In this document: piece by piece, positions 6,843 through 41,515 of the stretch
Layout: each line of letters begins with the position of its first letter
Numbering within the stretch: the stretch's first letter is position 1
Source: a virus
Strand: one strand, 5' to 3'
IMG/VR virus record: IMGVR_UViG_3300030380_006483
Length of the DNA stretch: 64,000 bases
Translations under genes and position numbers: made by a program
Notes under the pieces: generated by a model
What the model saw: only the letters and a program-made list of their open reading frames with translations
Told to the model about the DNA's origin: nothing
Database searches by the model: none

Positions 6843-6852
6843 TATATTTATA
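6843..6852 (+). promoter_or_regulatory. Putative late promoter motif WATATTTAT(A), representative of about 24 copies
   Basis: The same motif sits upstream of start codons at 6843, 16040, 19732, 23116, 25597, 28053, 28419, 29666, 32747, 34703, 36676, 38501, 41569, 44116, 50786, 53441, 54699, 55401, 57815, 58118, 59902, 60472, 61520 and 63647. Confidence 0.7.
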
Positions 6853-13883: not shown

Positions 13884-14303
13884 ATGTGGTTATACAATAA
13901 TAAAGTTATAAAAGGCATTGAACAAATGCCTAAAAATACATTTGGTTTCATTTATGAAGCTACTTATATTCCAACTAATGAAAAATACTTAGGTAAAAAG
14001 GTATTATATTTTAATAGAACTTTACCACCTTTAAAAGGATTTAAACGTAAAAGAAAAGTAGTAAAAGAAAGTGATTGGCTAACATATTATGGTAGCCATG
14101 AAAAAATAAAAACTCTCCTAAAAGAAAATAAACATAATGATTTTAGAAGAGAAATTTTAGAATTTGCATTTAATAAAAAACACCTTACATACTTAGAGAC
14201 AAAATATTTGTTTTGTAATAATGTATTAGAGAATACAGAATATATAAATGATAATATATTAGGCAAGTTTTTTAGAAAAGATTTGGTTAACCCAAATATC
14301 TAA
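13884..14303 (+). CDS. GIY-YIG family (Seg-like) endonuclease
   Basis: GFIY...KYLGKK motif, YYGS, FRREIL and YINDNI, as in T4-like Seg-type proteins. Confidence 0.7.
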   Translation: MWLYNNKVIKGIEQMPKNTFGFIYEATYIPTNEKYLGKKVLYFNRTLPPLKGFKRKRKVVKESDWLTYYGSHEKIKTLLKENKHNDFRREILEFAFNKKHLTYLETKYLFCNNVLENTEYINDNILGKFFRKDLVNPNI

Positions 14304-16067: not shown

Positions 16068-16868
16068 ATGTATAAATTACGTGATATAATACTTGAACGT
16101 ATAAGCCGTCCTAAAGCAATGATACTTGCTGGATCCCCCGGTGCTGGTAAGTCTTCTTTTATAGAAGATATTGATAATGCTTTAATAATGAATATCGATG
16201 ACATTTTTATTCGTAATTTACGAAATATGGGGGTGTCTTTAGATTTAAAAAATGCTAGTGCTGAAGAACGCAGCAAAGCAGCCTCAGCATTTGCCGCAGC
16301 TAATAAAGAATTTCGTCCTCAAATAATAGATATAATTAAAGGAAAGAAAAATTTTGTATTAGATACCACATCTGCAAATACAGGTACTACTCTTAGATAT
16401 AAACAACAATTAGAAGAATTAGGTTATGAAGTATTAATGGTATATGTTTTTGCTTCATTAGAAAAATCACTAGATAGAAATGAAACAAGGTTTAAACGTT
16501 CACAAGGCAAAGATAGAAGTTTATCACCCGCTATTGTATTACGTACTTGGAATTCTGTAACTCAAAATTATGATTTTTTTAAAAAAGAATTTGGAAATAA
16601 TTTTGTTTCTGTTGTAAATGATAAAGCCTTACAAAAAGGTGAACCACAAAAATCATTAGAAGATTTATTAGATAAGTATGTCACTCCTTATAAACCAACA
16701 GATACTAAACCTAAAACAGATAAACAACAACAAAAATCTGACCAACAAAAAGCAGAATTAAATAATCAAATAACAACTTTTATTAATTCTGATAAGGTAG
16801 AAGATATAAAAAGTGATTCTGTATCTAAAGGTGAAGCAAAATCTAGAGTAAAACAATTTTTCTCATGA
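16068..16868 (+). CDS. P-loop kinase (AAA_33/zeta-toxin/Pnk-kinase-like)
   Basis: Walker A GSPGAGKS, NIDD, VLDTT, R-x-x-x-R lid (DRNETR). Short leader MYKLRDIILE. Confidence 0.75.
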   Translation: MYKLRDIILERISRPKAMILAGSPGAGKSSFIEDIDNALIMNIDDIFIRNLRNMGVSLDLKNASAEERSKAASAFAAANKEFRPQIIDIIKGKKNFVLDTTSANTGTTLRYKQQLEELGYEVLMVYVFASLEKSLDRNETRFKRSQGKDRSLSPAIVLRTWNSVTQNYDFFKKEFGNNFVSVVNDKALQKGEPQKSLEDLLDKYVTPYKPTDTKPKTDKQQQKSDQQKAELNNQITTFINSDKVEDIKSDSVSKGEAKSRVKQFFS

Positions 16869-22479: not shown

Positions 22480-23117
22480 AAAAATTATTATTATTAATTG
22501 TTTTAATGTTAACAGGTTGTAGCAGTTATCAAGTTAATGATAACCGAATAGCAAGTATATTAGCTGTAACTGAAAAAGGAGACACTATTTCTGTCCCTTA
22601 TAAAAAATTTTTAAATGATAGATATACTGAATATACTAGATTTAATTATAATAATAATTGGTATTGGAATAATTGGAGATATGATTGGCAATGGAGATAT
22701 AATTATTGGTATTATGGACAATTAGATTATTACAATAATTACTATAATAATACACCAACACGTAGTTATAATTTTTCAAACCCAAGTAGTAAAAGGGGAG
22801 AAAAAGTAACAGTTATACCACCTGAAAATGATGGGATATATGTACCACCTTCACCTCCAAAACCACCAAAGGATAAAAAAGATAATATACGTATTTGGAA
22901 TAATCCTAGGCCTGCCCCAGGAAATCCAGTAAGAAGAAGTTTTAATCAACCTAATCAACCTTCTTATAGACAAAATAGTTTTAGTGCCCCTAGAAATAAT
23001 TTTAGTGCCCCTAGAAGCTATAGTGCTCCTAGAAGTAGTGCACCCACAAGATCGGCATCTCCTGTTCAAAGTGCGCCATCGGGTGGAAAAGGAAGTTCAA
23101 CTGGCAAAATTAATTAA
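22476..23117 (+). CDS. Lipoprotein with Trp/Tyr/Asn-rich core and Pro/Ser/Arg-rich tail
   Basis: MKKLLLLIVLMLTG-C lipobox; C-terminal (S/F/Y)SAPR repeats at 22978-23043. Confidence 0.7.
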   Translation: MKKLLLLIVLMLTGCSSYQVNDNRIASILAVTEKGDTISVPYKKFLNDRYTEYTRFNYNNNWYWNNWRYDWQWRYNYWYYGQLDYYNNYYNNTPTRSYNFSNPSSKRGEKVTVIPPENDGIYVPPSPPKPPKDKKDNIRIWNNPRPAPGNPVRRSFNQPNQPSYRQNSFSAPRNNFSAPRSYSAPRSSAPTRSASPVQSAPSGGKGSSTGKIN

Positions 23118-23140: not shown

Positions 23141-23887
23141 ATGGATAAATTTAACTTAAAAGGATATATCAACGAAAATAATCTTGGCGCCTATTCTAGG
23201 TTAAAAGAAAAACTTGATCCAGTAGGAAAAGAAGATAGTGATATTGACAACGATGGTGATGTTGATAAAACAGATGACTATTTAGCTAATAAAAGAAAAG
23301 CTGTATCTAAAGCAATAGCTGATAAAGAAAAAACTGACACTGAAAAAGATGCTAGAAAAGCAAAAGGTATGATGAATGAAGCTACTGATGCTGAGATAAT
23401 TGATTTATTATCTGATATGTTACTTAAATTATCTGATGGGAATACTACAGCTAGACAAGCTGCTTTTGATATAGCTAAAGAACAAGGTGTAAGTTTTAAT
23501 CTTATTATACAAAAATACCAACAAAAAGGTGGTGAGTTACAAGATATAGATTTTGAAACGTTAAAAGAAGATTTAGATGTAGGACATCAAGATGATGAAC
23601 CAAATATGTTAAAGAAAACTTTATATAGATCAGCTAAAATGGCTTCAATGTTATATAAGGAACTAGATAAATTTGATAAATTCCCAACGGAAGTAGATTT
23701 TCCAAATTGGTGGCAAGCCAAAATTATTAAAGCTAATGATTATTTAACTGCGGCATTTGATTATTTAGATGGTGAACAACAAACTGCTAAATTAGATGCT
23801 ATGCAGGAAAAGAAAATTGAAGTAGATGATGATACTAATTTTAAAGTGTCATTATCCCATTTATTAGATAAGCATATAACTAAATAG
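23141..23887 (+). CDS. Modular putative internal head protein
   Basis: Leader MDKFNLKGYINE; DIDNDGDVD loop; linkers LKE, MNE, LKE, MQE; late motif upstream. Confidence 0.55.
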   Translation: MDKFNLKGYINENNLGAYSRLKEKLDPVGKEDSDIDNDGDVDKTDDYLANKRKAVSKAIADKEKTDTEKDARKAKGMMNEATDAEIIDLLSDMLLKLSDGNTTARQAAFDIAKEQGVSFNLIIQKYQQKGGELQDIDFETLKEDLDVGHQDDEPNMLKKTLYRSAKMASMLYKELDKFDKFPTEVDFPNWWQAKIIKANDYLTAAFDYLDGEQQTAKLDAMQEKKIEVDDDTNFKVSLSHLLDKHITK

Positions 23888-25596: not shown

Positions 25597-25610
25597 AATA
25601 TTTATAACAT

Positions 25611-25847
25611 ATGGATAATTTCGATCTAAAAAAATATTTAGTAGAAGGTAAATTAACCGAACAAGAAGAAGAAATGGATTTTTCTTATACTGAACTAACT
25701 GATGATGAAAAAGATATGGTTAGTGATGTACTTGAAGATATATATGAAAAGATAAATCCAACTAATGATATAAAAAAATACACAGGATTATTTAAATTCA
25801 TTGATAGCTGGTTTGAAGCTAGAGGTGGTATAGGATCAGGAGCATAA
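25611..25847 (+). CDS. Small acidic protein with conserved leader MDNFDLKKYLVEGKLTE
   Basis: 78 aa; late motif at 25597. Confidence 0.7.
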   Translation: MDNFDLKKYLVEGKLTEQEEEMDFSYTELTDDEKDMVSDVLEDIYEKINPTNDIKKYTGLFKFIDSWFEARGGIGSGA

Positions 25848-25857
25848 TATAAATAAT

Positions 25858-26139
25858 ATGAATAATTTTAATTTAAAAAAATACTTAGCTGAAGGTCACT
25901 TATTAAAGGAGGCCGTAATTTGGAACTGGGATGGAGATAGAAACTCTCTAGAGGAAGTTCCACCAAAATTTAAAGCTGCTGTAAAAGCAGAATTAGAAGA
26001 TCCATTAAGTGACGAACAATTTGAAGAAGCTTTTGATGCTGTTAAAAATTCTTTTGCTGATGAAGCAGGTAGAGGTAGCATGAAATTTAAATCAGACGAT
26101 TGGGCTGAAATGATTGATATGGATTACGATCCAGATTAA
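25858..26139 (+). CDS. Small acidic protein with conserved leader MNNFNLKKYLAEGHLLKE
   Basis: 93 aa; first 47 nt are 45/47 identical to the start of the next gene. Confidence 0.7.
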   Translation: MNNFNLKKYLAEGHLLKEAVIWNWDGDRNSLEEVPPKFKAAVKAELEDPLSDEQFEEAFDAVKNSFADEAGRGSMKFKSDDWAEMIDMDYDPD

Positions 26140-26174
26140 CTTTAAAAATAAATGTATAATTAAAATAAATAAAA

Positions 26175-26483
26175 ATGAATAATTTTAATTTAAAAAAATA
26201 CTTAGCAGAAGGTCGCTTATTTGAATCAATTAATCTTGACATTGAAGATGATATAGCAATACTAAGTGGGGATTCAGGTGAATACGAAGGTGAAATTAAA
26301 GATGGAAAAGTATCATTTTCTATTATATATGATAATTTAGATTTTAGAATAACAGATAAATTTAATAAAAATAATATTGAAGATTTTTTAGGTAAAAGTC
26401 ATGCATTTGTAGAATTAGCTAAAAAATATGACCATAATTGGGATATTGAACGTGATTTAGTTGGTATAACAATAAAATTATAA
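26175..26483 (+). CDS. Small acidic protein with conserved leader MNNFNLKKYLAEGRLFE
   Basis: 102 aa; shares only the leader with the two preceding genes. Confidence 0.7.
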   Translation: MNNFNLKKYLAEGRLFESINLDIEDDIAILSGDSGEYEGEIKDGKVSFSIIYDNLDFRITDKFNKNNIEDFLGKSHAFVELAKKYDHNWDIERDLVGITIKL

Positions 26484-26540
26484 TAAAAAACATACAGACT
26501 ATATTCATAGCATAGTCGTTTATTTTAGTTAATAGGAGCT

Positions 26541-26574
26541 GTGGCCCAATTTTTTGGAGCCACAACTTTTTTTT
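26541..26574 (+). terminator. Rho-independent terminator
   Basis: GTGGC-CCAA-TTTT-TTGG-A-GCCAC hairpin followed by AAC and a T8 run. Confidence 0.7.
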
Positions 26575-26584
26575 CGTATATTTA
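26553..26584 (+). promoter_or_regulatory. Bacteroidota-type promoter-like site upstream of the FAD oxidoreductase
   Basis: TTTG (26553-56), N20, TATATTTA (26577-84). Confidence 0.55.
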
Positions 26585-26601
26585 ATAGTTAAATCGTGTA
26601 A

Positions 26602-29666: not shown

Positions 29667-29689
29667 ATATTTATAGCAAATATAATATC

Positions 29690-30508
29690 ATGGATAATTT
29701 TAGTTTACAAAACTGGAGAATCAGAGTAGTTAACGAAGACGCATTTAGAGAAGGAATGGGAGAATTAAATGTATATGGGTATCAAACTAACCATTTTGAT
29801 ATATGCCCAGGTGCCCAAACTTTATTTAAGGACATTTTAAGAGGAGAATTTACTGATGGCATACCTAGTGCTAAGGAACAAGATAAAATTGTTGAATTAG
29901 CTAAATTACATGATATTTTATTTAAATTAGAAAAAATTGCTCTTAAGGATCAGGGTGATGCAAAGGTAGTATTTGATAAAGTTGTAGAGACGGCTTCTGA
30001 TATCTACACATTAGGTACTGAAATTGGATTAGATCAAAATTCCGACTTAAGATATATTCAAGGCCATGTAGAAAGGGTTAATGATGCAGCTAGAGGAACA
30101 GATGATATTGGTAGACCCTTAGATGAAGATAAAGCTGAAGATATGGCAGCTTTAATTAAACAAAGAGATGCCTTAATAAAAAAACATTCTGATGCTGGGG
30201 AAATGTTTAGTGATAAAGTCTATGATCTTGATAGCCAAATTCAAAAAATAGCAAAATCAGAAAGCTTAGATGAAATTGAATTAGAAATCCCAGGTGAAGA
30301 AAACGCACCTGCAGGGGATAAGGTTTTAAATAAAAAGTTAACTAAAAATGATAAAATTATTGCAGCTTATAAAGATATAGAGCAAGAAATTAAAGATAGT
30401 ATTCAAAAAATTAAATCAGGTAATGAACTTGAAAAAAAGACTGCTATGGATTTCTTAAAATCTAATCAAGATACTATAAAAGCTTACAATAATTTAAAGA
30501 AGGTTTGA
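29690..30508 (+). CDS. Modular putative internal head protein
   Basis: Leader MDNFSLQNWRIRVVNE; linkers FRE, MGE, LDE, LDE; late motif upstream. Confidence 0.5.
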   Translation: MDNFSLQNWRIRVVNEDAFREGMGELNVYGYQTNHFDICPGAQTLFKDILRGEFTDGIPSAKEQDKIVELAKLHDILFKLEKIALKDQGDAKVVFDKVVETASDIYTLGTEIGLDQNSDLRYIQGHVERVNDAARGTDDIGRPLDEDKAEDMAALIKQRDALIKKHSDAGEMFSDKVYDLDSQIQKIAKSESLDEIELEIPGEENAPAGDKVLNKKLTKNDKIIAAYKDIEQEIKDSIQKIKSGNELEKKTAMDFLKSNQDTIKAYNNLKKV

Positions 30509-30852: not shown

Positions 30853-31165
30853 ACCTGTTGCTAAATTAGTAATACAGGATTTAATAAAATTTGATGCCTC
30901 TTATATGGAGATAGAGACATTACAACAAATTCTTAAAGAAACTAATTCAAAAATTGATACTCAAAACGAATTAAATACTAATTTAAGATCTCAAATTGAA
31001 ACATATAGAACAATGTTATCAACTAAAGATGAACAATTAGATACTTCAAAAGATATGTCTAAAGAATTAGAAAGAGCGTATAAAAAAGAAAGACGTCTTA
31101 AAAAATTCTACCAAATAACTTCTATGGTAGGTGGAGCAGCAATATTATTACTATTAGTACAATAA
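30737..31165 (+). CDS. Signal-peptide coiled-coil protein with C-terminal TM helix (spanin partner candidate)
   Basis: MLLKLKQKLNLTLLIILMLLSWNGFS-Q signal peptide; overlaps the previous gene by 116 nt in another frame; C-terminal ITSMVGGAAILLLLVQ. Confidence 0.45.
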   Translation: MLLKLKQKLNLTLLIILMLLSWNGFSQTDIDSVKIQLTKPVAKLVIQDLIKFDASYMEIETLQQILKETNSKIDTQNELNTNLRSQIETYRTMLSTKDEQLDTSKDMSKELERAYKKERRLKKFYQITSMVGGAAILLLLVQ

Positions 31166-32748
31166 TGGCTGATAATTTAAAACATATAATAAAGGAGGAA
31201 TTTATAAAGTGTGCTAAGGACCCAGTATACTTTATGAAAAAATACTATACTATCCAGCACCCACAAAGAGGTAGAATTAAATTTAATCTTTACCCATTTC
31301 AAGAGAAAGTTCTTACTCACATGAATAATGAAGATTATGTTATAATAAATAAATCAAGACAATTAGGTATATCAACTTTATGTTCAGCTTATTCATTATG
31401 GATGATGTTATTTCATAAAGATAAAAACGTATTATGTATAGCAACTAAACAAGAAACTGCTAAAAACATGGTAACTAAGGTAAGGTTTGCTTATGACCAA
31501 TTGCCAAAGTGGTTACAAATAAAAACAGATGAACATAATAAATTATCTTTACGTTTAGCAAATGGTTCCCAAATTAAAGCAGTAGCAGCAAGTCAAGACG
31601 CAGGTAGGAGTGAAGCAGTATCTTTATTATTAATAGATGAGGCAGCCTTTATTGATGGAATAGATGAGATATTCGCCTCAGCCCAACAGACACTAGCTAC
31701 TGGTGGTGGATGTATAGCATTATCAACACCTTATGGTACTGGTAATTGGTTTCATTCAACTTGGGCTAAAGCAGAAGCAAGAGAAAATACATTTTTACCA
31801 ATTAGATTACCATGGACGGTTCACCCAGAAAGAAATCAAGAATGGAGAGATGAACAAGATATAGTACTAGGACCTAGAATGGCCTCACAGGAATGTGATT
31901 GTGATTTTAGCACTTCAGGTGACACTGTTATAGAACCTGATATATTAAATTTTTACGAAAGTACTTACATCCAAGAACCAGTTGAAAGAAGAGGTATAGA
32001 TGGAAATTTATGGGTATGGCAAATACCAGATTACTCTAAAGATTATATAGTAGTAGCAGATGTTGCTAGAGGTGATGGTAATGATTTTTCAGCATTCCAT
32101 GTATTTGATATAGAAGAAGCAACACAAGTAGCTGAATTTAAGGCTCAAGTTCAAACAAAGGATTATGGTAATTTATTATTTGCTGTAGCTACAGAATACA
32201 ATGATGCTTTACTTGTAGTAGAAAATGCAAACATAGGTTGGGCTGTAATCCAACAATTAATAGATAGAGGTTATAGAAATTTATATTATTCTCCTAAAAT
32301 GGATGTGTCAATGACTAATGCTGACCAATATCTTTCTAGGTTTGAAAATGGACAAGGTATGGTTCCTGGATTTACTACATCAATGAAGACAAGACCACTT
32401 GTAGTCTCCAAAATGGTTTCGTATCTTCACGACAAATCTGTTACTCTTCGTTCTAAAAGATTATTAGAAGAACTAAGAACGTTTGTGTGGAAAAATGGTA
32501 AAGCACAAGCATTATCAGGTTATAATGATGATTTAACTATGGCATTAGGAATAGGAATGTTTTTACGAGACACAGCTTTACACTTTAGGCAACAGGGTGT
32601 AGATATGGCAAGAGCGGCACTAGGAGGAATACACTCAACAAATCATCAAGCACCTAATATTTACCAAGGTGGAAAACCAAACATAAACCCATACGAAATG
32701 GAAAATCCATATGGAGATAAAGAAGATATCTCTTGGTTATTGGGTTAA
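31165..32748 (+). CDS. gp17: Terminase large subunit
   Basis: KSRQLGIS Walker A, LLLIDEAAF Walker B, ALSTPYG motif III, nuclease ADVARG...D and DDL. Confidence 0.95.
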   Translation: MADNLKHIIKEEFIKCAKDPVYFMKKYYTIQHPQRGRIKFNLYPFQEKVLTHMNNEDYVIINKSRQLGISTLCSAYSLWMMLFHKDKNVLCIATKQETAKNMVTKVRFAYDQLPKWLQIKTDEHNKLSLRLANGSQIKAVAASQDAGRSEAVSLLLIDEAAFIDGIDEIFASAQQTLATGGGCIALSTPYGTGNWFHSTWAKAEARENTFLPIRLPWTVHPERNQEWRDEQDIVLGPRMASQECDCDFSTSGDTVIEPDILNFYESTYIQEPVERRGIDGNLWVWQIPDYSKDYIVVADVARGDGNDFSAFHVFDIEEATQVAEFKAQVQTKDYGNLLFAVATEYNDALLVVENANIGWAVIQQLIDRGYRNLYYSPKMDVSMTNADQYLSRFENGQGMVPGFTTSMKTRPLVVSKMVSYLHDKSVTLRSKRLLEELRTFVWKNGKAQALSGYNDDLTMALGIGMFLRDTALHFRQQGVDMARAALGGIHSTNHQAPNIYQGGKPNINPYEMENPYGDKEDISWLLG

Positions 32749-32772: not shown

Positions 32773-34698
32773 ATGGCAGACACTTCATTATTTGGTAGAC
32801 TAAGAAGATTATTTTCTACAGATGTAGTAATAAGAAACGTTGGGGGGAATCAACTTAAAGTAATAGATTCTAACCAAATACAATCCTTAGGTCAACTACA
32901 AACAAACTCACTATACGATAGATTTAATAAGTTGTATAGCACTACAGGGGGGCTGAATTATAATACAATGCAGCAAACTAATTTCCCTTCTACTAGAATT
33001 CAATTATACACAGACTATGAATCAATGGATACTGATTCTATTGTTGCTTCTGCATTAGATATAGTATCTGATGAATCTTGTTTAAGAAATGATATGGGCG
33101 AAGTACTACAAATTCGTTCAGCTGATGAAACAATACAAAAAATATTATATAATTTATTTTATGATGTACTGAATATAGAATTTAATCTATGGTCTTGGAC
33201 ACGTAATATGTTAAAATATGGAGACTTTTATCTAAAATTAGAAATATCAGAAAAATTTGGTGTATTTAATGTAATTCCATTTTCTTCTTATACTATTATG
33301 AGAATGGAGGGTGCAGATCCAGCTAATCCGGCTGACGTAAAATTTAAATATGATCCTAGTTATTCAGTATCTGAAAGTCCATTAGGATTTCAACAAATAT
33401 CACCCGGAGTAGGTGTTAATACTGGTGAGGAAGTAGTGTTTGATAATTATGAAATGGCCCATTTTAGACTATTATCTGATTTTAATTACTTACCTTATGG
33501 TAGATCATATCTTGAACCAGGAAGAAAAATTTGGAAACAAATGACATTGATGGAAGACGCAATGTTAATCCATAGAATAGTTAGAGCACCAGAAAAAAGA
33601 ACTTTCTTTGTAAATGTTGGAAATATACCACCTAATGAAGTAGAAACTTATATGCAAAGAATGATCAATAAAATGAAAAAAACACCTTATGTTGATCCAA
33701 ATACAGGTGATTATAATTTAAAATTCAACATGCAAAACATATTGGAAGATTTTTATATTCCTGTAAGAGGTGGAGATGCAACAACTAGAATTGAAACAAC
33801 AAAAGGTTTAGATTATGCTGCTATTGAAGATGTAACTTATTTAAGAGATAAATTATTCTCTGCACTTAAAGTTCCAAAAGCTTATTTAGGGTATGAAGCT
33901 GATTTAGAGGGTAAAGCAACACTAGCTGCTGAAGATATTAGATTTGCTAGAACAGTTGAAAGAATTCAAAAAATATTAATATCTGAATTAACTAAAATTG
34001 CATTAGTACATTTATATGCACAAGGATATGATGATTCTGCATTAACTAATTTTGAATTATCATTAACTACACCTTCTATTATATATGACCAGGAAAGAAC
34101 GGCATTGTTAAAAGAAAAAGTTGACTTAGCTCAACAAATGATGGATACTAAGTTAATGCCTACAGATTGGATATATGATAATATCTTCCATTTTAGTGAA
34201 GATCAATATCAAGAATATAGAGATCTAATTATTGAAGATCAAAAACGTAAATTTAGAGAGGCACAAATTGAAACAGAAGGAAACGACCCTGCTGAATCAG
34301 GTGAAGCATATGGTACACCTCATTCATTAGCTTCATTATATGGTGCTGGAAGATATCCGGGAAGCAAAGGAGTTCCTACAGGGTATAGTATTAATGACCC
34401 AGAATACCCAGAACAAGCATTAGATCAGGGAAGACCGGCGGATTCTGTATCTGATTATGGTACACAAGATAGTAATTTAGGTAAAGATCCTCTTGGTTCT
34501 AATAGAATGACAGCAAAATCAGGAGAAGAAGAAAGACCAGGATTATCTAACGCAGGAATGGCTTTAGAAAATTTAAATACTAAATCAATATTTGCTCAAA
34601 ATGAAAAAATGTTGAAAGGTATGTTTAAACAAAAAGTTAATTTGTTTGAAGGAGAAAACCTCTTGGATGAAGATAATATTCGTGAGGAAGTTGAATAA
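32773..34698 (+). CDS. gp20: Portal protein
   Basis: MEDAMLIHRIVRAPEKRTF...NVGN...EDFYIPVRG...IE...ALKVPK, typical of T4-like portals. Confidence 0.95.
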   Translation: MADTSLFGRLRRLFSTDVVIRNVGGNQLKVIDSNQIQSLGQLQTNSLYDRFNKLYSTTGGLNYNTMQQTNFPSTRIQLYTDYESMDTDSIVASALDIVSDESCLRNDMGEVLQIRSADETIQKILYNLFYDVLNIEFNLWSWTRNMLKYGDFYLKLEISEKFGVFNVIPFSSYTIMRMEGADPANPADVKFKYDPSYSVSESPLGFQQISPGVGVNTGEEVVFDNYEMAHFRLLSDFNYLPYGRSYLEPGRKIWKQMTLMEDAMLIHRIVRAPEKRTFFVNVGNIPPNEVETYMQRMINKMKKTPYVDPNTGDYNLKFNMQNILEDFYIPVRGGDATTRIETTKGLDYAAIEDVTYLRDKLFSALKVPKAYLGYEADLEGKATLAAEDIRFARTVERIQKILISELTKIALVHLYAQGYDDSALTNFELSLTTPSIIYDQERTALLKEKVDLAQQMMDTKLMPTDWIYDNIFHFSEDQYQEYRDLIIEDQKRKFREAQIETEGNDPAESGEAYGTPHSLASLYGAGRYPGSKGVPTGYSINDPEYPEQALDQGRPADSVSDYGTQDSNLGKDPLGSNRMTAKSGEEERPGLSNAGMALENLNTKSIFAQNEKMLKGMFKQKVNLFEGENLLDEDNIREEVE

Positions 34699-36655: not shown

Positions 36656-36688
36656 TACAGAGGACAAAGACGATAAATATTTATATAC

Positions 36689-37855
36689 ATGACAACACAA
36701 GAACTATATAACAAGGTATTAGCTGAGGAGGTAACACAGCAAAAATTCTTATACGAAGTTCGTAGAGATATAAATTTACCTTTCATAACTTCAAGCAATA
36801 ATTTCAAAGATACTGTACAGATCTTAAAGAATAAAGGCATAATATCTGAAAAAAAATTATCAACTGGTAAACAAGATGTTGAAATTTACGCTAAAACTAT
36901 TGATATGGTTAATCCATATGAGTATAGTAGGGGTATGAATTTTGAATTAGGTGTTGTTATGGACGCAATAGGAAATAGAATTTCTGATAATGCCGGTGAT
37001 AGTATGCACATTGAAGATCTTACTAAAGATGACGTATTAAAGGCACAGAAAAAAGTATTAAAAAATCTTACTAAAAACCCTCAATACTATCAACAAAAGT
37101 TAATCCCACAAATGGAAGGTGAAACTGAACACCCAGTTGAAGTAAATGCTAAATCAATAGAGGCCTTAAAAAAAAAAGCAGGGAAAGTAATTCGTGAACA
37201 TGGTGAAGATTATGAGAAAGTATCCAAAGTTATGGGTAGTATTTCTCCCTTAGAAGAGGATAGCTATACTCTTACTGGTAAAGAATCAGAAACTTTTAAA
37301 GAAAAAGTAAAAAAATTTACAAGAGCTAAAAGTTATGCAGAAGAACTTGTAGCTTTAAAGGAATTAGATAAGTTATATGCTCAGTTAGATTTAAAAAAGA
37401 TGGATGTAAATGACTATGAAGAAATAGTAACTGATCCTCAATTAAAACTTGATTTAGACGAATTTAAAACTTCGGAAACAAATACTGATTACATATTGGC
37501 TTTACAGGCTTGGAAACAAACCGGAAGTGATATAGCTTATAGAAACTTAGTAAAAGCTTCTAAAGCTAATAATATGCCATTACCCCCACCAAAAAGTGAA
37601 ATGAATCCATTAAGAGAATATGGAACTGGAATTGGTAAAGAAGAGCAAATTGCAGCTAAAGAAATAGCAGCTAAACGTGAACAGATTTATAAAAAATATG
37701 CCGAAGAATATAATGTGGATGTTAATGAAATTAAAGATAGATTAGAAGCATATAAAATATCCCAAGAAGAAGCTATTGAGGTTGAAGATGAAGATACAGC
37801 AATATCAGTACAAAAAAAATCACCTAACGCTGACGTAAGAATAATCGGAAAATAA
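36689..37855 (+). CDS. Putative prohead core/internal protein
   Basis: 388 aa, charged; linkers ISE, IRE, LEE, LRE; late motif upstream. Confidence 0.5.
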   Translation: MTTQELYNKVLAEEVTQQKFLYEVRRDINLPFITSSNNFKDTVQILKNKGIISEKKLSTGKQDVEIYAKTIDMVNPYEYSRGMNFELGVVMDAIGNRISDNAGDSMHIEDLTKDDVLKAQKKVLKNLTKNPQYYQQKLIPQMEGETEHPVEVNAKSIEALKKKAGKVIREHGEDYEKVSKVMGSISPLEEDSYTLTGKESETFKEKVKKFTRAKSYAEELVALKELDKLYAQLDLKKMDVNDYEEIVTDPQLKLDLDEFKTSETNTDYILALQAWKQTGSDIAYRNLVKASKANNMPLPPPKSEMNPLREYGTGIGKEEQIAAKEIAAKREQIYKKYAEEYNVDVNEIKDRLEAYKISQEEAIEVEDEDTAISVQKKSPNADVRIIGK

Positions 37856-38472
37856 TGGCTCAAACACTATTAATAGAGTATTCGGTATTTACTCCAAAGA
37901 ATACCCAAATTACTGAAGGTATTTCGGGTAATAAAAATATGATTGTTAACGGTGTCGTTCAACGTGCCGAAGAATTCAATCACAATGGTAGAAGATATCC
38001 ATTTGAAATTTTAAAAAGAGAAGTAGATAAATATATTGAAGGCCCTATTAGAGAAAATAGAGCTTTAGGTGAATTAGACCATCCAGAATCATCTGTAATT
38101 AATTTAAAAAATGCTTCTCATAATATAAAAGAATTATATTTTGAAGGAAATGATTTAATGGGTAGTATAGAAATTTTACCTACTCCTTCAGGTAATATCT
38201 TAAAAGAATTATTTAAAAATAATATTACGGTTGGAATTTCTTCTAGAGGTATGGGTTCTGTAAAACCTTTAGGTGAAGGTAAGGTAGAAGTAGAAGATGA
38301 TTTTGAATTATTATGTTGGGATTTTGTATCAACACCATCTACACATGGGGCTTTTGTAAAACCCGTAGGGTTAAACGAAGGACGAAATCATAATTCTAAT
38401 CCATATATTAAATTAAACAAAATTATATCTGATATTATTTGTACTCAATCAGGTATTTGTTGTTTAAAATAA
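37855..38472 (+). CDS. gp21: Prohead core protease
   Basis: NHNGRRY, ALGELDHP, NASH, VGISSRGMGS, WDFVSTPSTHGA motifs of the T4 gp21 (U9) family. Confidence 0.95.
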   Translation: MAQTLLIEYSVFTPKNTQITEGISGNKNMIVNGVVQRAEEFNHNGRRYPFEILKREVDKYIEGPIRENRALGELDHPESSVINLKNASHNIKELYFEGNDLMGSIEILPTPSGNILKELFKNNITVGISSRGMGSVKPLGEGKVEVEDDFELLCWDFVSTPSTHGAFVKPVGLNEGRNHNSNPYIKLNKIISDIICTQSGICCLK

Positions 38473-38599: not shown

Positions 38600-39835
38600 A
38601 TGTCAAATACAAAGTTTTTCAACGATGCTATCGCTGAAGCTAAGGCTATTAGAGAAACTGCTCTAGCCAATGCTAAACTTGCATTAGAAGAAGCTTTTAC
38701 TCCACAGATTCAATCTATGTTAGAGAAAAAGCTATCAGAAGAAGCTGATGATATGGATGAAGCTAAAGACATGGACGAGGCGAAAGCTAAGGATATGGAT
38801 GAAGCTAAAGACATGGACGAAGCTAAAAAAGATGTAGATGAAGCAAAAAAGGACATGGACGAAGCAAAATCCAAAGATATGGATGAAGCTAAGGATATGG
38901 ACGAAGCAAAGAAAGACGTTGACGAAGCCAAAAAAGACATGGATGAAGCTAAAAAAGACATGGACGAGAAAAAGGACATGGATGAAGCAAAATCTGATGT
39001 TGATGAGGCTAAGAAAGACGTAGACGAAGCAAAAGTTGACGAGAAAAAGGACATGGAAGAAACCGTAGAAGTATCTGAAGAAGTATCTGAAGAGAAAGAT
39101 ATGGATGAAGACATGTACGAAGAAGGTCAAATCGAAGAAATCGATCTTGACGAATTGCTAGCGGAATTAGAAGCAGCTGAAGAAGGCTATTCTAACGAAG
39201 GTGAAGCAAAAGAAGAAATCGCTGTTGAGGCGCCTGTATCAGAAGAAGAAGTAGCTGAAGAAGCTGCTGCTGATGATGAAGTAGGTGAAATCTCAGTAGA
39301 AGATCTTAAAGACATCATCAAAGACGTAATGGCAGATGTGCTAGGCGGTGGCGGTGGTGAAGACATGGAAGTTGACGTTGATGGAGATGGTGACATAGAT
39401 GTTGCTATTGACGGAGATGACGACGGAGATGTTGAAGTAGAGGATGACATGGCGGAAGCTAAGAAAGATGATAAAATGGATGAAACAAAAGCTGAGTTAA
39501 ATGAAGCTATTAAAGTAATCGAAACTTTAAAATCTGAACTTAACGAAGTTAACTTACTTAACGCTAAACTTCTTTACGTAAATAAATTATTTAGAACAAA
39601 GAACCTTACTGAAACTCAGAAAGTAAAAGTGATTAATTCATTTGATAAAGCTGAATCAGTTAAAGAGGTTAAAAACTTATTTGAAACAATTAAGGATGCA
39701 GTTACTACAACTAAAAAGCCAGTGAACGAATCTAAAGGATTTGCTTCTAAAGCAGCAGGTGTAGCACCAAAAGCCCCAATTGTAGAAAGTGATAACTTTG
39801 TAGCTAGAATGCAAAAGCTAGCAGGAATTATTTAA
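38600..39835 (+). CDS. gp22: Prohead scaffold protein
   Basis: Acidic coiled-coil protein between protease and major capsid protein; assignment is largely positional. Confidence 0.8.
   Translation: MSNTKFFNDAIAEAKAIRETALANAKLALEEAFTPQIQSMLEKKLSEEADDMDEAKDMDEAKAKDMDEAKDMDEAKKDVDEAKKDMDEAKSKDMDEAKDMDEAKKDVDEAKKDMDEAKKDMDEKKDMDEAKSDVDEAKKDVDEAKVDEKKDMEETVEVSEEVSEEKDMDEDMYEEGQIEEIDLDELLAELEAAEEGYSNEGEAKEEIAVEAPVSEEEVAEEAAADDEVGEISVEDLKDIIKDVMADVLGGGGGEDMEVDVDGDGDIDVAIDGDDDGDVEVEDDMAEAKKDDKMDETKAELNEAIKVIETLKSELNEVNLLNAKLLYVNKLFRTKNLTETQKVKVINSFDKAESVKEVKNLFETIKDAVTTTKKPVNESKGFASKAAGVAPKAPIVESDNFVARMQKLAGII
38747..39061 (+). repeat. Tandem (K)D(M/V)DEAK repeat, about 15 units, in the scaffold
   Basis: Direct translation; 18-24 nt units with synonymous variation and one higher-order 4-unit duplication. 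Confidence 0.9.
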
Positions 39836-39862: not shown

Positions 39863-41515
39863 ATGTCAAACGTAGTAAATCAACTATTAGAAACTGCAAA
39901 CCCGTACAAATCAGTACAAAAAGATGCTGCTAAATTAGCGGGTAAGTGGGAAAAATCAGGTTTATTAGAAGGTATTTCTAATGAAACTGATAAGTCTAAC
40001 ATGTCGATCATGTTAGAAAACCAAGCTAAACAACTTGTTGTTGAAGCTAACACTACTGGGACAGGTGCAACATTTACTCCAGGTACAGGTGAACAATACG
40101 CTGCTGTAGCGTTACCACTTGTAAGAAAGGTATTTGGACAAATCGCTGCTAAAGAATTCGTTTCTGTACAGCCAATGTCTTTACCTGCTGGTTTAGTATT
40201 TTACCTAGACTTCCAGTACGGAAATTCAAAAACTCCATTCACTGATGGGGATTCAACGTATGGTGATAGCTATGCGGATGGTCACTTTGGTAATACAAAC
40301 GAAGGTGGTCTTTACGGTGCTGGTAAATTCGGATATTCAATTAACCTATTTTCAGCTTCTGTTGCTGACGCTAACCACACTATATCTTCAGCTTCTTATG
40401 CTGATGTAAACTTTGATGCTGATTTATCAGCTTCAGTAGCTGCCGCTCCAGGTAGAATTACTAAAATTTCTGTTAAAACAGGATCTTTATCAGGTGCTGA
40501 TGTAGACGGAGTAAGAGGATGGAGAGTAACTGGTGCTAACGGAGCACTAGCTGCGATCACAGAGGCTTTAAACTTCCCAGCATTAACTAAGATAAACGGA
40601 GATAGTGTTGAATTCTTTGTAACATCATCAGGTGTTGAAAGTGATGAAGACATTACTGTTTTCTATAACAAGCAAACTGCAGATAACGCAAGAGGTGACT
40701 TCGAAGATGGTGCTGATTACTCTTCTCAGACTGGTACTGGTAGAGCAATTAACATCCCAGAAATTGATGTTCAATTAAGAAGTGAAACTATTGCTGCTAA
40801 AACAAGAAAGTTAAAAGCACAATGGACACCAGAATTCTCTCAGGACTTGAATGCATTCCATTCATTAGATGCTGAAGCAGAATTAACTAACATTTTAAGT
40901 GAGTACATTTCATTAGAAATCGATCTTGAAATTTTAGATATGTTAATTGAAAACGTACCTTCAACTCAGGTGGCTAACTGGTCAGCTAAAGTAGGTAATG
41001 AAATTAACGCAGGTGCCACAGCTTTCACATCTAACACAGATGGTGTATACTATACACAAATGAGCTGGTTCCAAACTCTTGGAATTAAATTACAGAAAAT
41101 CTCTAACTTAATCCACCAGAAAACTTTAAGAGGTGGTGCTAACTTTATGGTTGTTTCTCCAACAGTAGCTACAATATTAGAATCTATTCCAGGATTCGCT
41201 GCTGATACTGACGGGGATGCTGCTAAAATGCAATATGCATTTGGTGTACAGAAAATTGGTGCATTAAACAGCAGATATAAAGTTTACAAGAACCCATACA
41301 TGAAAGAAAACACGATCTTGATGGGATTCAGAGGTAATCAATTCCTAGAAAGTGGTGCTGTATATGCTCCATATATTCCATTAATCATGACACCATTAGT
41401 GTATGATCCTAATACTTTCACTCCAAGAAAAGGTATTATGACTAGATACGCTAAGAAAATGGTAAGACCTGAATTCTATGGAAAAGTACATGTTGCAGAC
41501 TTAAACATAATTTAA
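39863..41515 (+). CDS. gp23: Major capsid protein
   Basis: VQPMSLPAGLVFYLDF, KTRKLKAQWTPEFSQDL, YAPYIPL, PRKGIMTRY; probable maturation site LVVE61-A62. Confidence 0.95.
   Translation: MSNVVNQLLETANPYKSVQKDAAKLAGKWEKSGLLEGISNETDKSNMSIMLENQAKQLVVEANTTGTGATFTPGTGEQYAAVALPLVRKVFGQIAAKEFVSVQPMSLPAGLVFYLDFQYGNSKTPFTDGDSTYGDSYADGHFGNTNEGGLYGAGKFGYSINLFSASVADANHTISSASYADVNFDADLSASVAAAPGRITKISVKTGSLSGADVDGVRGWRVTGANGALAAITEALNFPALTKINGDSVEFFVTSSGVESDEDITVFYNKQTADNARGDFEDGADYSSQTGTGRAINIPEIDVQLRSETIAAKTRKLKAQWTPEFSQDLNAFHSLDAEAELTNILSEYISLEIDLEILDMLIENVPSTQVANWSAKVGNEINAGATAFTSNTDGVYYTQMSWFQTLGIKLQKISNLIHQKTLRGGANFMVVSPTVATILESIPGFAADTDGDAAKMQYAFGVQKIGALNSRYKVYKNPYMKENTILMGFRGNQFLESGAVYAPYIPLIMTPLVYDPNTFTPRKGIMTRYAKKMVRPEFYGKVHVADLNII

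Follow-up and report, generated by a model that had tools for sequence, protein, structure and literature searches.

Three small tandem genes on the IMG/VR virus record IMGVR_UViG_3300030380_006483 encode proteins that share a short N-terminal leader followed by unrelated bodies, here called cargos. The whole analyzed stretch of 64,000 nucleotides (nt) is referred to as the window. The leader is a real feature, far beyond chance, and we consider with moderate confidence that it is a diverged, two-unit version of the T4-type capsid-targeting propeptide, carried by exchangeable cargo. The window has a G+C content of about 30% across its 64 kb, carries essentially every gene on the + strand and derives from an uncultured marine T4-like myophage; the hosts of this distant phage branch are probably Flavobacteriia.

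The shared leader and its unrelated cargos

The three genes are named below by their start positions and are organized as follows (aa, amino acids; pI, isoelectric point):

25611..25847, + strand: leader-cargo gene 1, 78 aa; leader MDNFDLKKYLVEGKLTE encoded by 25611-25661; cargo of 61 aa, pI 4.05
25858..26139, + strand: leader-cargo gene 2, 93 aa; leader MNNFNLKKYLAEGHLLKE encoded by 25858-25911; cargo of 75 aa, pI 4.07
26175..26483, + strand: leader-cargo gene 3, 102 aa; leader MNNFNLKKYLAEGRLFE encoded by 26175-26225; cargo of 85 aa, pI 4.45

All three open with M(D/N)NF(D/N)LKKYL(V/A)EG.L..E, the common start that the original prediction, made from the DNA alone, had described, and their leaders close in L-T-E17 (25611), L-K-E18 (25858) and L-F-E17 (26175). 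A degenerate DNA pattern covering the ten opening codons matches exactly three sites in the window, the starts of these genes, versus none in 100 shuffles. The starts of 25858 and 26175 are identical over 45 of 47 nt, as had been reported, with GCT/GCA and CAC/CGC as the sole differences, and the DNA of both genes does not align 5' of the ATG or beyond codon 16. The statement that the cargos are unrelated past the Glu also held, since BLASTP gave no alignment (no match at E <= 100 twice, E = 15 once) and the homology beyond the leader that plain paralogs would show was not found between any two cargos. They are indeed small and acidic in the window (61-85 aa, pI 4.05-4.45).

AlphaFold models of 26175 and 25858 were built on family alignments. 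The 26175 model is beta-rich, with a predicted local distance difference test score (pLDDT) of 77 (up to about 90 locally) and a fold starting at residue 20, while the 25858 model is mainly helical (pLDDT 67). In both models the leader is a low-confidence extension (residues 1-19 in 26175) with a short helix at residues 6-11. Each window cargo forms its own family, with homologues elsewhere that are 50-97% identical; 25611 has seven related protein clusters in metagenomes and a related cargo in the same slot of L114, and 26175 has 56 related clusters. Pfam and PHROGs searches with the three window proteins returned nothing, tblastn against 50,697 phage records gave chance-level matches only, and the ESM Atlas contained no usable match. 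For the 26175 model, Foldseek found no match at E <= 0.001 in PDB and BFVD, and the best VIA-align result among 48,161 chains (Z 5.1) lies below the noise level stated for the tool.

The tandem arrangement and the near-identity of two leaders might suggest plain paralogs, which arose by tandem duplication and diverged in their bodies while the N-terminus was conserved. This origin is very improbable given the lack of BLASTP similarity past the leader, the different predicted folds, the separate family of each cargo and the presence of the same cargo behind different leader types (see below).

The wider family was collected by searching IMG/VR with the same degenerate pattern, and all family figures refer to the matches listed. 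The pattern occurs in at least 119 IMG/VR stretches, from which at least 125 distinct full-length proteins have the leader at their extreme N-terminus. Behind the leader, these proteins form at least 87 BLASTP clusters (70 singletons), and the mean column identity outside the leader is 7%. The cargos have a median length of 113 aa and a median pI of 4.56, with 78% of the 125 below pI 5.5. About 120 of the 125 leader proteins have no Pfam match. The rare domain matches in Pfam or PHROGs comprise a zeta-toxin/AAA-type kinase, sigma-70 regions 2 and 4, and an HD domain, one each. The sigma-70-like factor matches the Pfam models of regions 2 and 4 at 8.5e-07 and 1.9e-14, and an HD-type His-Asp motif (..FHDLGK..) in L078:364-954 (- strand) is probably the source of the single HD match. 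Complete relatives (155-166 kb) contain between one and five leader copies, mostly clustered.

Outside IMG/VR, tblastn of a 28-residue leader against the 50,697 deposited phage records matched only the four records of immuto (vB_FspM_immuto_2-6A), a relative cultured on Flavobacterium sp. LMO8. In 596 Gb of prokaryote genomes the pattern was matched seven times, and three of these matches are true leaders on contigs of 29-31% G+C inside metagenome-assembled genomes (MAGs). The leader is thus essentially confined to phage DNA. Four MAG contigs of gut Bacteroides/Bacteroidaceae and Oscillospiraceae (L121, L124, L125, and L126) encode 27-44-residue peptides of the type MNNF(D/N)FKKYF(G/K)NLVG..., which match the pattern and represent an unrelated small-peptide family. 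The leader strings were not found in the searchable literature, where the leader family and its scale appear to be undescribed.

Within the leader, Phe4 is invariant and Tyr/Phe9 precedes L-x-E12, residues that the search pattern itself fixed, and Glu12 is kept in 123 of the 125 listed proteins. Their counterparts in T4 would be Tyr4 and Phe7, the latter ahead of I-A-E10. The conservation ends with [LIVM]-x-E in 120 of the 125, at a residue between 17 and 32 (17-19, 23-24 or 28 depending on the subtype), while only 20% of control positions have such a motif within 15 residues.

The original prediction described the leader as a DNA-level cassette whose identical 5' ends allow recombinational swapping. 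The first part applies to the adjacent pair 25858/26175, in which 12 of the 13 codons for shared residues are identical, a likeness that only the top 2-3% of between-contig pairs reach. It does not extend to the family. Across 134 distinct genes, third codon positions in the leader are as variable as the background or richer in G/C (e.g., TTC for F4 in 31% versus 16%), residue 14 is written by six Lys/Arg codons, and replacements are conservative (K/R, A/V, Y/F, G/N). Because the wobble positions vary like the background, selection acts family-wide on the peptide and not on the DNA. Leader pairs from the same contig are somewhat more alike at synonymous sites than pairs from different contigs (0.73 versus 0.67, p = 0.013 for non-independent pairs), which indicates local leader duplication or gene conversion as a secondary effect. 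Recombination at the leader as such is indicated by the fusions and leader swaps described below and would not necessarily depend on identical DNA.

The same observations bear on the idea that the shared 5' end serves as an expression or recombination module (an A/T-rich start for efficient translation initiation in hosts that do without Shine-Dalgarno sequences, doubling as a homology patch for gene shuffling) and that the peptide has no role. The A/T content of about 90% in the first ten codons, the near-identical starts of 25858 and 26175 and the slight synonymous likeness within contigs would all be in line with such a module. We nevertheless judge it to be quite improbable, as the residues are kept by conservative replacement while wobble positions drift, the second half of the leader occurs in frame inside fusions far from any start codon, and an RNA or DNA element would have no need to end at a Glu.

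Exchange of leaders and cargos, genomic slots and putative transcription signals

Comparison of homologues suggests that cargo and leader have been exchanged. The 25858 cargo family is found behind a short leader (..YLAEG.LLKE|AV..) as well as a long leader (..FLVENKLTSNSKFLNE|AV..), and the cargo homology begins directly after ..[KN]E|AV, whichever leader type precedes it. Similarly, a P-loop kinase carries the leader in L014, while its orthologues start with MISLVQLLKE or MYKLRDIILE, and the homology runs from just past ..LKE. These starts point to a second leader class of 10 residues, which may be interchangeable with the first. The kinase gene of the window (16068-16868) starts with MYKLRDIILE, and the ortholog with the MDNFNLKKYL.. 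leader is located at L014:8743-9561. Many genes in the 16-30 kb region of the window (19761, 20382, 21434) open with similar Lys/Leu/Glu helices closing in hydrophobic-x-E.

In addition, two or three cargos can be fused in a single protein, with joints of the form ..(Y)LAEG[KR]L.xE that retain the second half of the leader but lack its N-terminal part. Such joints are found in P0027, P0031, P0052, P0059, and P0066, in the three-cargo protein L077 and in L109 and L100. The last three, which fuse two or three cargos, are located at:

L077:11385-12176, - strand: natural multi-cargo fusion
L100:8452-9201, - strand: natural multi-cargo fusion
L109:4218-4730, + strand: natural multi-cargo fusion

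The joints of these three fusions are the leader remnants ..IDNFDLKKYLAEGRLFKE.., ..NLAEGRLLKE.. and ..MKELNAFRQYLTEGTINE... Further cargos are found again inside larger proteins, as internal modules.

In the relatives, leader genes occupy four recurrent slots:

Slot 1: upstream of a g26602-like FAD/NAD(P) oxidoreductase gene, the slot of the window (19 cases)
Slot 2: beside a SegE-like homing endonuclease gene (17 cases)
Slot 3: between g19151 and g23141 (13 cases)
Slot 4: flanking the prohead protease gene (9 cases)

The oxidoreductase slot holds between zero and three leader genes with differing cargos in seven relatives. In L107, the protease gene is flanked on either side by canonical leader genes, and immuto encodes a variant leader gene between the protease and scaffold genes as well as a further two immediately upstream of its terminase gene. 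As a hypervariable slot, the window locus resembles the ip loci of T-even phages. The window also contains a SegE-like GIY-YIG homing endonuclease gene (13884-14303; Pfam PF19835, 1.7e-27); the space from the SegE-like gene to the primase-like gene 14335 is one of the places where relatives recurrently carry leader-cargo genes.

The three genes are bordered by two putative transcription signals:

25598..25606, + strand: promoter-like motif ATATTTATA, 5 nt upstream of 25611
26534..26575, + strand: terminator-like hairpin followed by the T-run UUUUUUUU, from the RNA fold of 26484-26600

The motif ATATTTAT[AT] has 23 copies on the + strand of the window versus two on the - strand, and almost every + copy is followed by a gene start at a distance of about 5-75 nt, among them the starts of portal, tail and sheath genes, 23141 and 29690. 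Examples on the + strand are found at 6844, 16041, 23117, 25598, 29667, 32748, and 34704, and further at 36677, 41570, 44117, 53442, 58119, and 61521. Its distribution suggests that ATATTTAT[AT] is the virion-gene promoter of the window phage, probably a late promoter. The late-promoter consensus of T4 (TATAAATA) was considered as well and occurs just six times across the window, including a copy 10 nt upstream of 25858, leaving ATATTTAT[AT] as the better candidate. A simple scan of the window for sigma-70 promoters gave fewer matches than shuffled controls. A second type of upstream motif, TCGTATATTTA, precedes 16068, 26602 and 28428. Downstream, the fold of 26484-26600 has a minimum free energy of -22.2 kcal/mol (z = -2.07), and the hairpin at 26534-26575, which a simple terminator scan did not pick out, would end the three-gene unit.

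The gene neighborhood is relevant to another explanation, in which the leader is recognized as a tag by some other phage component (a modifying enzyme, for instance, or a chaperone) instead of being a capsid address. This would be comparable to systems for ribosomally synthesized and post-translationally modified peptides, in which a single enzyme acts on many tagged substrates. The nearest recognized gene downstream is the g26602-like oxidoreductase in 19 fetched cases. However, the oxidoreductase is absent from the complete genomes of G001 (166 kb, with terminal repeats) and immuto (160 kb), which each have about five leader genes; in G003 it is located about 80 kb away from the leader cluster, and in the window it is set apart from the array by the terminator-like hairpin and by an upstream motif of another kind. 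The flavoenzyme, the candidate partner enzyme that the analysis covered, was rejected as tag partner because it is missing from two complete leader-bearing genomes. A partner tag of any kind, which we consider unlikely, would moreover leave unexplained why conservation ends at [LIVM]-x-E and why half of the leader serves as a linker in fusions.

Head genes and comparison with the T4 internal proteins

The reading of the leader as a capsid-targeting propeptide is consistent with the head genes of the window, which form a T4-type module:

31165-32748: large terminase, part of the T4-type head module
32773..34698, + strand: portal protein of the T4 gp20 type (phrog_213 portal, E = 8.6e-64)
37855..38472, + strand: prohead protease of the T4 gp21 family (Pfam Peptidase_S77, E = 5.6e-29; phrog_207)
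38600..39835, + strand: scaffold (gp22-like) candidate of 411 aa, from its composition and its position between the protease and capsid genes
39863..41515, + strand: major capsid protein of the gp23 family with an N-terminal propeptide (Pfam Gp23, E = 9.9e-76)

The T4 head set thus includes a gp20 portal, an S77 protease and gp23, with the scaffold assigned by position and composition alone. The capsid protein matches T4 gp23 in PDB at about 3e-29. Its residue 63 aligns with residue 10 of mature T4 gp23*, and the candidate sites M-L-E52|N and V-V-E61|A fall in this alignment at the position of the T4 maturation cut. The scaffold candidate, for which Pfam and PHROGs searches gave no family match, starts with MSNTKFFNDAIAE|A (..AIAE|A), followed by about 20 tandem ..K(K)D[MV]DE|AK units, and we infer its scaffold role. 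Each repeat AK(K)D[MV]DE of 38600-39835 contains one [MV]-D-E site of the protease type, so maturation would cut the scaffold candidate into very short peptides. The [LIVM]-x-E motif is therefore common to the scaffold candidate, the capsid propeptide and the leader, and at the sequence level the closing [LIVM]-x-E of the leader matches the Leu/Ile-x-Glu cleavage rule of T4 gp21. We propose the protease encoded by 37855-38472 as the leader-removing enzyme; an S77 protease is present in all four complete or near-complete relatives with leader genes.

In T4, the capsid-targeting sequence (CTS) consists of the first 10 residues, MKTYQEFIAE, and is cut after Glu10 (PMC8442874). Residues 4 and 7 of the tag of internal protein (IP) III function in targeting and residues 8 and 10 in processing (PMC9026906). 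The internal proteins of T-even phages share the leader alone, and their loci are polymorphic (PMC3012670, PMC12373910). The system of the window phage resembles this organization in several respects: a short N-terminal tag is the sole similarity among small unrelated proteins, the tag has an aromatic residue at position 4 and a hydrophobic-x-Glu end, its first unit ends with aromatic-[IL]-A-E, the gp20, gp21, gp22-like and gp23 head genes are present, and hypervariable slots, with about three to five copies per genome, vary between close relatives. It differs in a tag of 17-28 residues with two L-x-E units and a spacing from the aromatic residue to the end that is two residues longer, in cargos that fit in size but are mostly acidic instead of basic, in at least 87 sampled cargo families versus about 10 reported for T-evens, in natural multi-cargo fusions that retain a presumably cleavable leader half, and in presumed hosts among the Flavobacteriia.

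Based on these comparisons, the following scenario can be drawn. The three genes would be transcribed as one unit from the promoter-like motif that also precedes virion genes, with the hairpin acting as terminator. The first unit of the leader, M-D/N-N-F-D/N-L-K-K-Y/F-L-A/V-E, would dock the protein on the scaffolding core during prohead assembly, after which the gp21-family protease would cut behind the Glu of the closing [LIVM]-x-E and perhaps also after L-x-E12. The acidic cargo of 61-85 residues would then remain in the head and enter the cell with the DNA. As the tag alone is proposed to suffice for loading, cargos could be freely gained, lost, swapped and fused, giving rise to hypervariable slots and occasional polyproteins jointed by the cleavable half. 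An anti-defence role of the cargos, as put forward in the original prediction, is suggested only by analogy with T4 Ip1-3, each of which blocks a GmrSD-type enzyme directed against modified DNA (PMC12373910).

The original prediction saw an independent, T4-like head-loading cassette. The T4-like part is favored by the head machinery, the cleavage motif located where homology stops, the at least 87 cargo families, the signs of exchange and the hypervariable slot. Its independence is doubtful in a T4-like phage with a first leader unit that ends in [YF]-L-A-E like the F-I-A-E of T4, and a diverged version of the T4 system appears at least as likely as an independent origin.

Several points weigh against a capsid-targeting propeptide. 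Loading, cutting and injection are inferred for every member, including the cultured immuto. The leader has no sequence homology to the T4 CTS and is longer, with two L-x-E units: the 28-residue leader matched no T-even phage in the tblastn search of the 50,697 phage records, and visual comparison with MKTYQEFIAE shows agreement only at M1, at the aromatic position 4 and in the [FY][IL]AE end. The cargos are acidic, while T4 IPs are described as highly basic (PMC8442874), and some cargos (a few enzymes, a sigma-70-like protein) are of kinds not readily expected inside a capsid. Furthermore, [LIVM]-x-E is a short motif in proteomes rich in Lys, Glu and Leu, and the 125 listed leaders are mutually related and hence do not represent independent observations. 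Finally, all leader-bearing contigs come from one phage clade, so the co-occurrence of leader and protease has no discriminating power.

The acidity of the cargos, shared with the scaffold candidate, and the location of some leader genes within the head-gene block next to the protease would also agree with a variant in which the leader does target the prohead while the cargos are assembly or charge-balancing parts of the core (comparable to gp67, gp68 and the acidic internal peptides of T4) and not injected effectors. The at least 87 unrelated families, mostly singletons and varying in presence among close relatives, do not show the pattern of an essential part, and the folded domains (pLDDT to about 90 in 26175) together with occasional enzyme domains suggest activities of their own. 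We regard core parts as a rather improbable identity of the cargos.

Variant-leader genes, related systems and significance

The original prediction also pointed to related leaders in two further genes of the window, and both are present:

23141..23887, + strand: variant-leader gene, 248 aa, leader MDKFNLKGYINE; ATATTTATA motif upstream at 23117
29690..30508, + strand: variant-leader gene, 272 aa, leader MDNFSLQNWRIRVVNE; ATATTTATA at 29667; located upstream of the terminase block

The C-terminal module of 23141 recurs within differently built proteins of 210-801 aa in relatives, and the 29690 cargo has no homologue in the fetched relative loci. Inside 23141, positions 23203-23330 encode an acidic Asp-rich stretch of about 40 residues (..PVGKEDSDIDNDGDVDKTDDYLANKRKAV..). 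Many cyanophages as well as Methylophilales phage Melnitz and a Paraglaciecola phage have hypothetical genes whose DNA is 73-78% identical to this stretch.

Immuto has the head-gene block in the same order as the window and at least five proteins starting with MENTFDLKKFLVENKLT.., MADNFNLRSFLTENKLT.., MENFDLKKFLVENKLT.. or MENNFDIHKWQAKFLKE. Its leaders are of the long type and its cargos are different. These proteins are annotated as hypothetical or are misnamed from weak similarity (e.g., ‘cob(I)alamin adenosyltransferase’).

The phiKZ-like phages have a cleavage motif of the S/A/G-x-E type, which differs from the [LIVM]-x-E of the leader. In these giant phages (201phi2-1, phiKZ, SPN3US), a diverged gp21-family protease (gp175 in phiKZ) likewise cuts many head proteins after Glu, at a short motif, many different proteins are loaded into the head, and the presence of several sites per propeptide provides redundancy (PMC9026906, PMC5694885, PMC7411985). 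In contrast to the leader family, they lack a single shared N-terminal tag on unrelated small cargos and load large inner-body or ejection proteins, compared to cargos of 60-300 residues here. Polyvalent proteins of phages and conjugative elements (PMC5512222) consist of unrelated conflict-type modules strung together in one polypeptide, which presumably arrives along with the DNA and is split into its parts. The L077, L100, and P0052 fusions and the multi-module neighbors in the window resemble them, although here there is usually one small cargo per tagged gene and the joints of the fusions are remnants of the tag.

A tentative extension of the capsid-targeting reading, which we consider possible but rather doubtful, is a clade-wide system in which T4-like phages of the Flavobacteriia type from marine and freshwater environments would inject hundreds of unrelated effector families, many of them inhibiting modification-dependent or other defences, much as T4 Ip1-3 counter GmrSD. 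These effectors would be mostly acidic, would include kinases, an HD hydrolase and a sigma-70-like factor, and would be freed by the head protease from single genes and polyproteins. The link to DNA modification is drawn because immuto replaces all G by fdPreQ1, a 7-deazaguanine derivative (PMC10516641). QueC is found in three of four relatives, and a search for DpdA with Pfam TGT was uninformative, missing even immuto, which encodes DpdA3.

If the leader is a head-loading signal, a simple sequence rule would pick out the proteins that a large group of environmental phages delivers to its hosts as infection begins. Dark-matter open reading frames would then become a defined set of candidates for counter-defence and host-takeover screens in Flavobacteriia, for which few tools exist, and engineering of this phage group could make use of the tag as a handle for packaging. 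The capsid-targeting logic of T4 would in that case be an old and general trait of T4-like phages and not a speciality of the T-even coliphages, with two added twists in this clade: a leader built from two units, and natural polyproteins that are jointed by its cleavable half.

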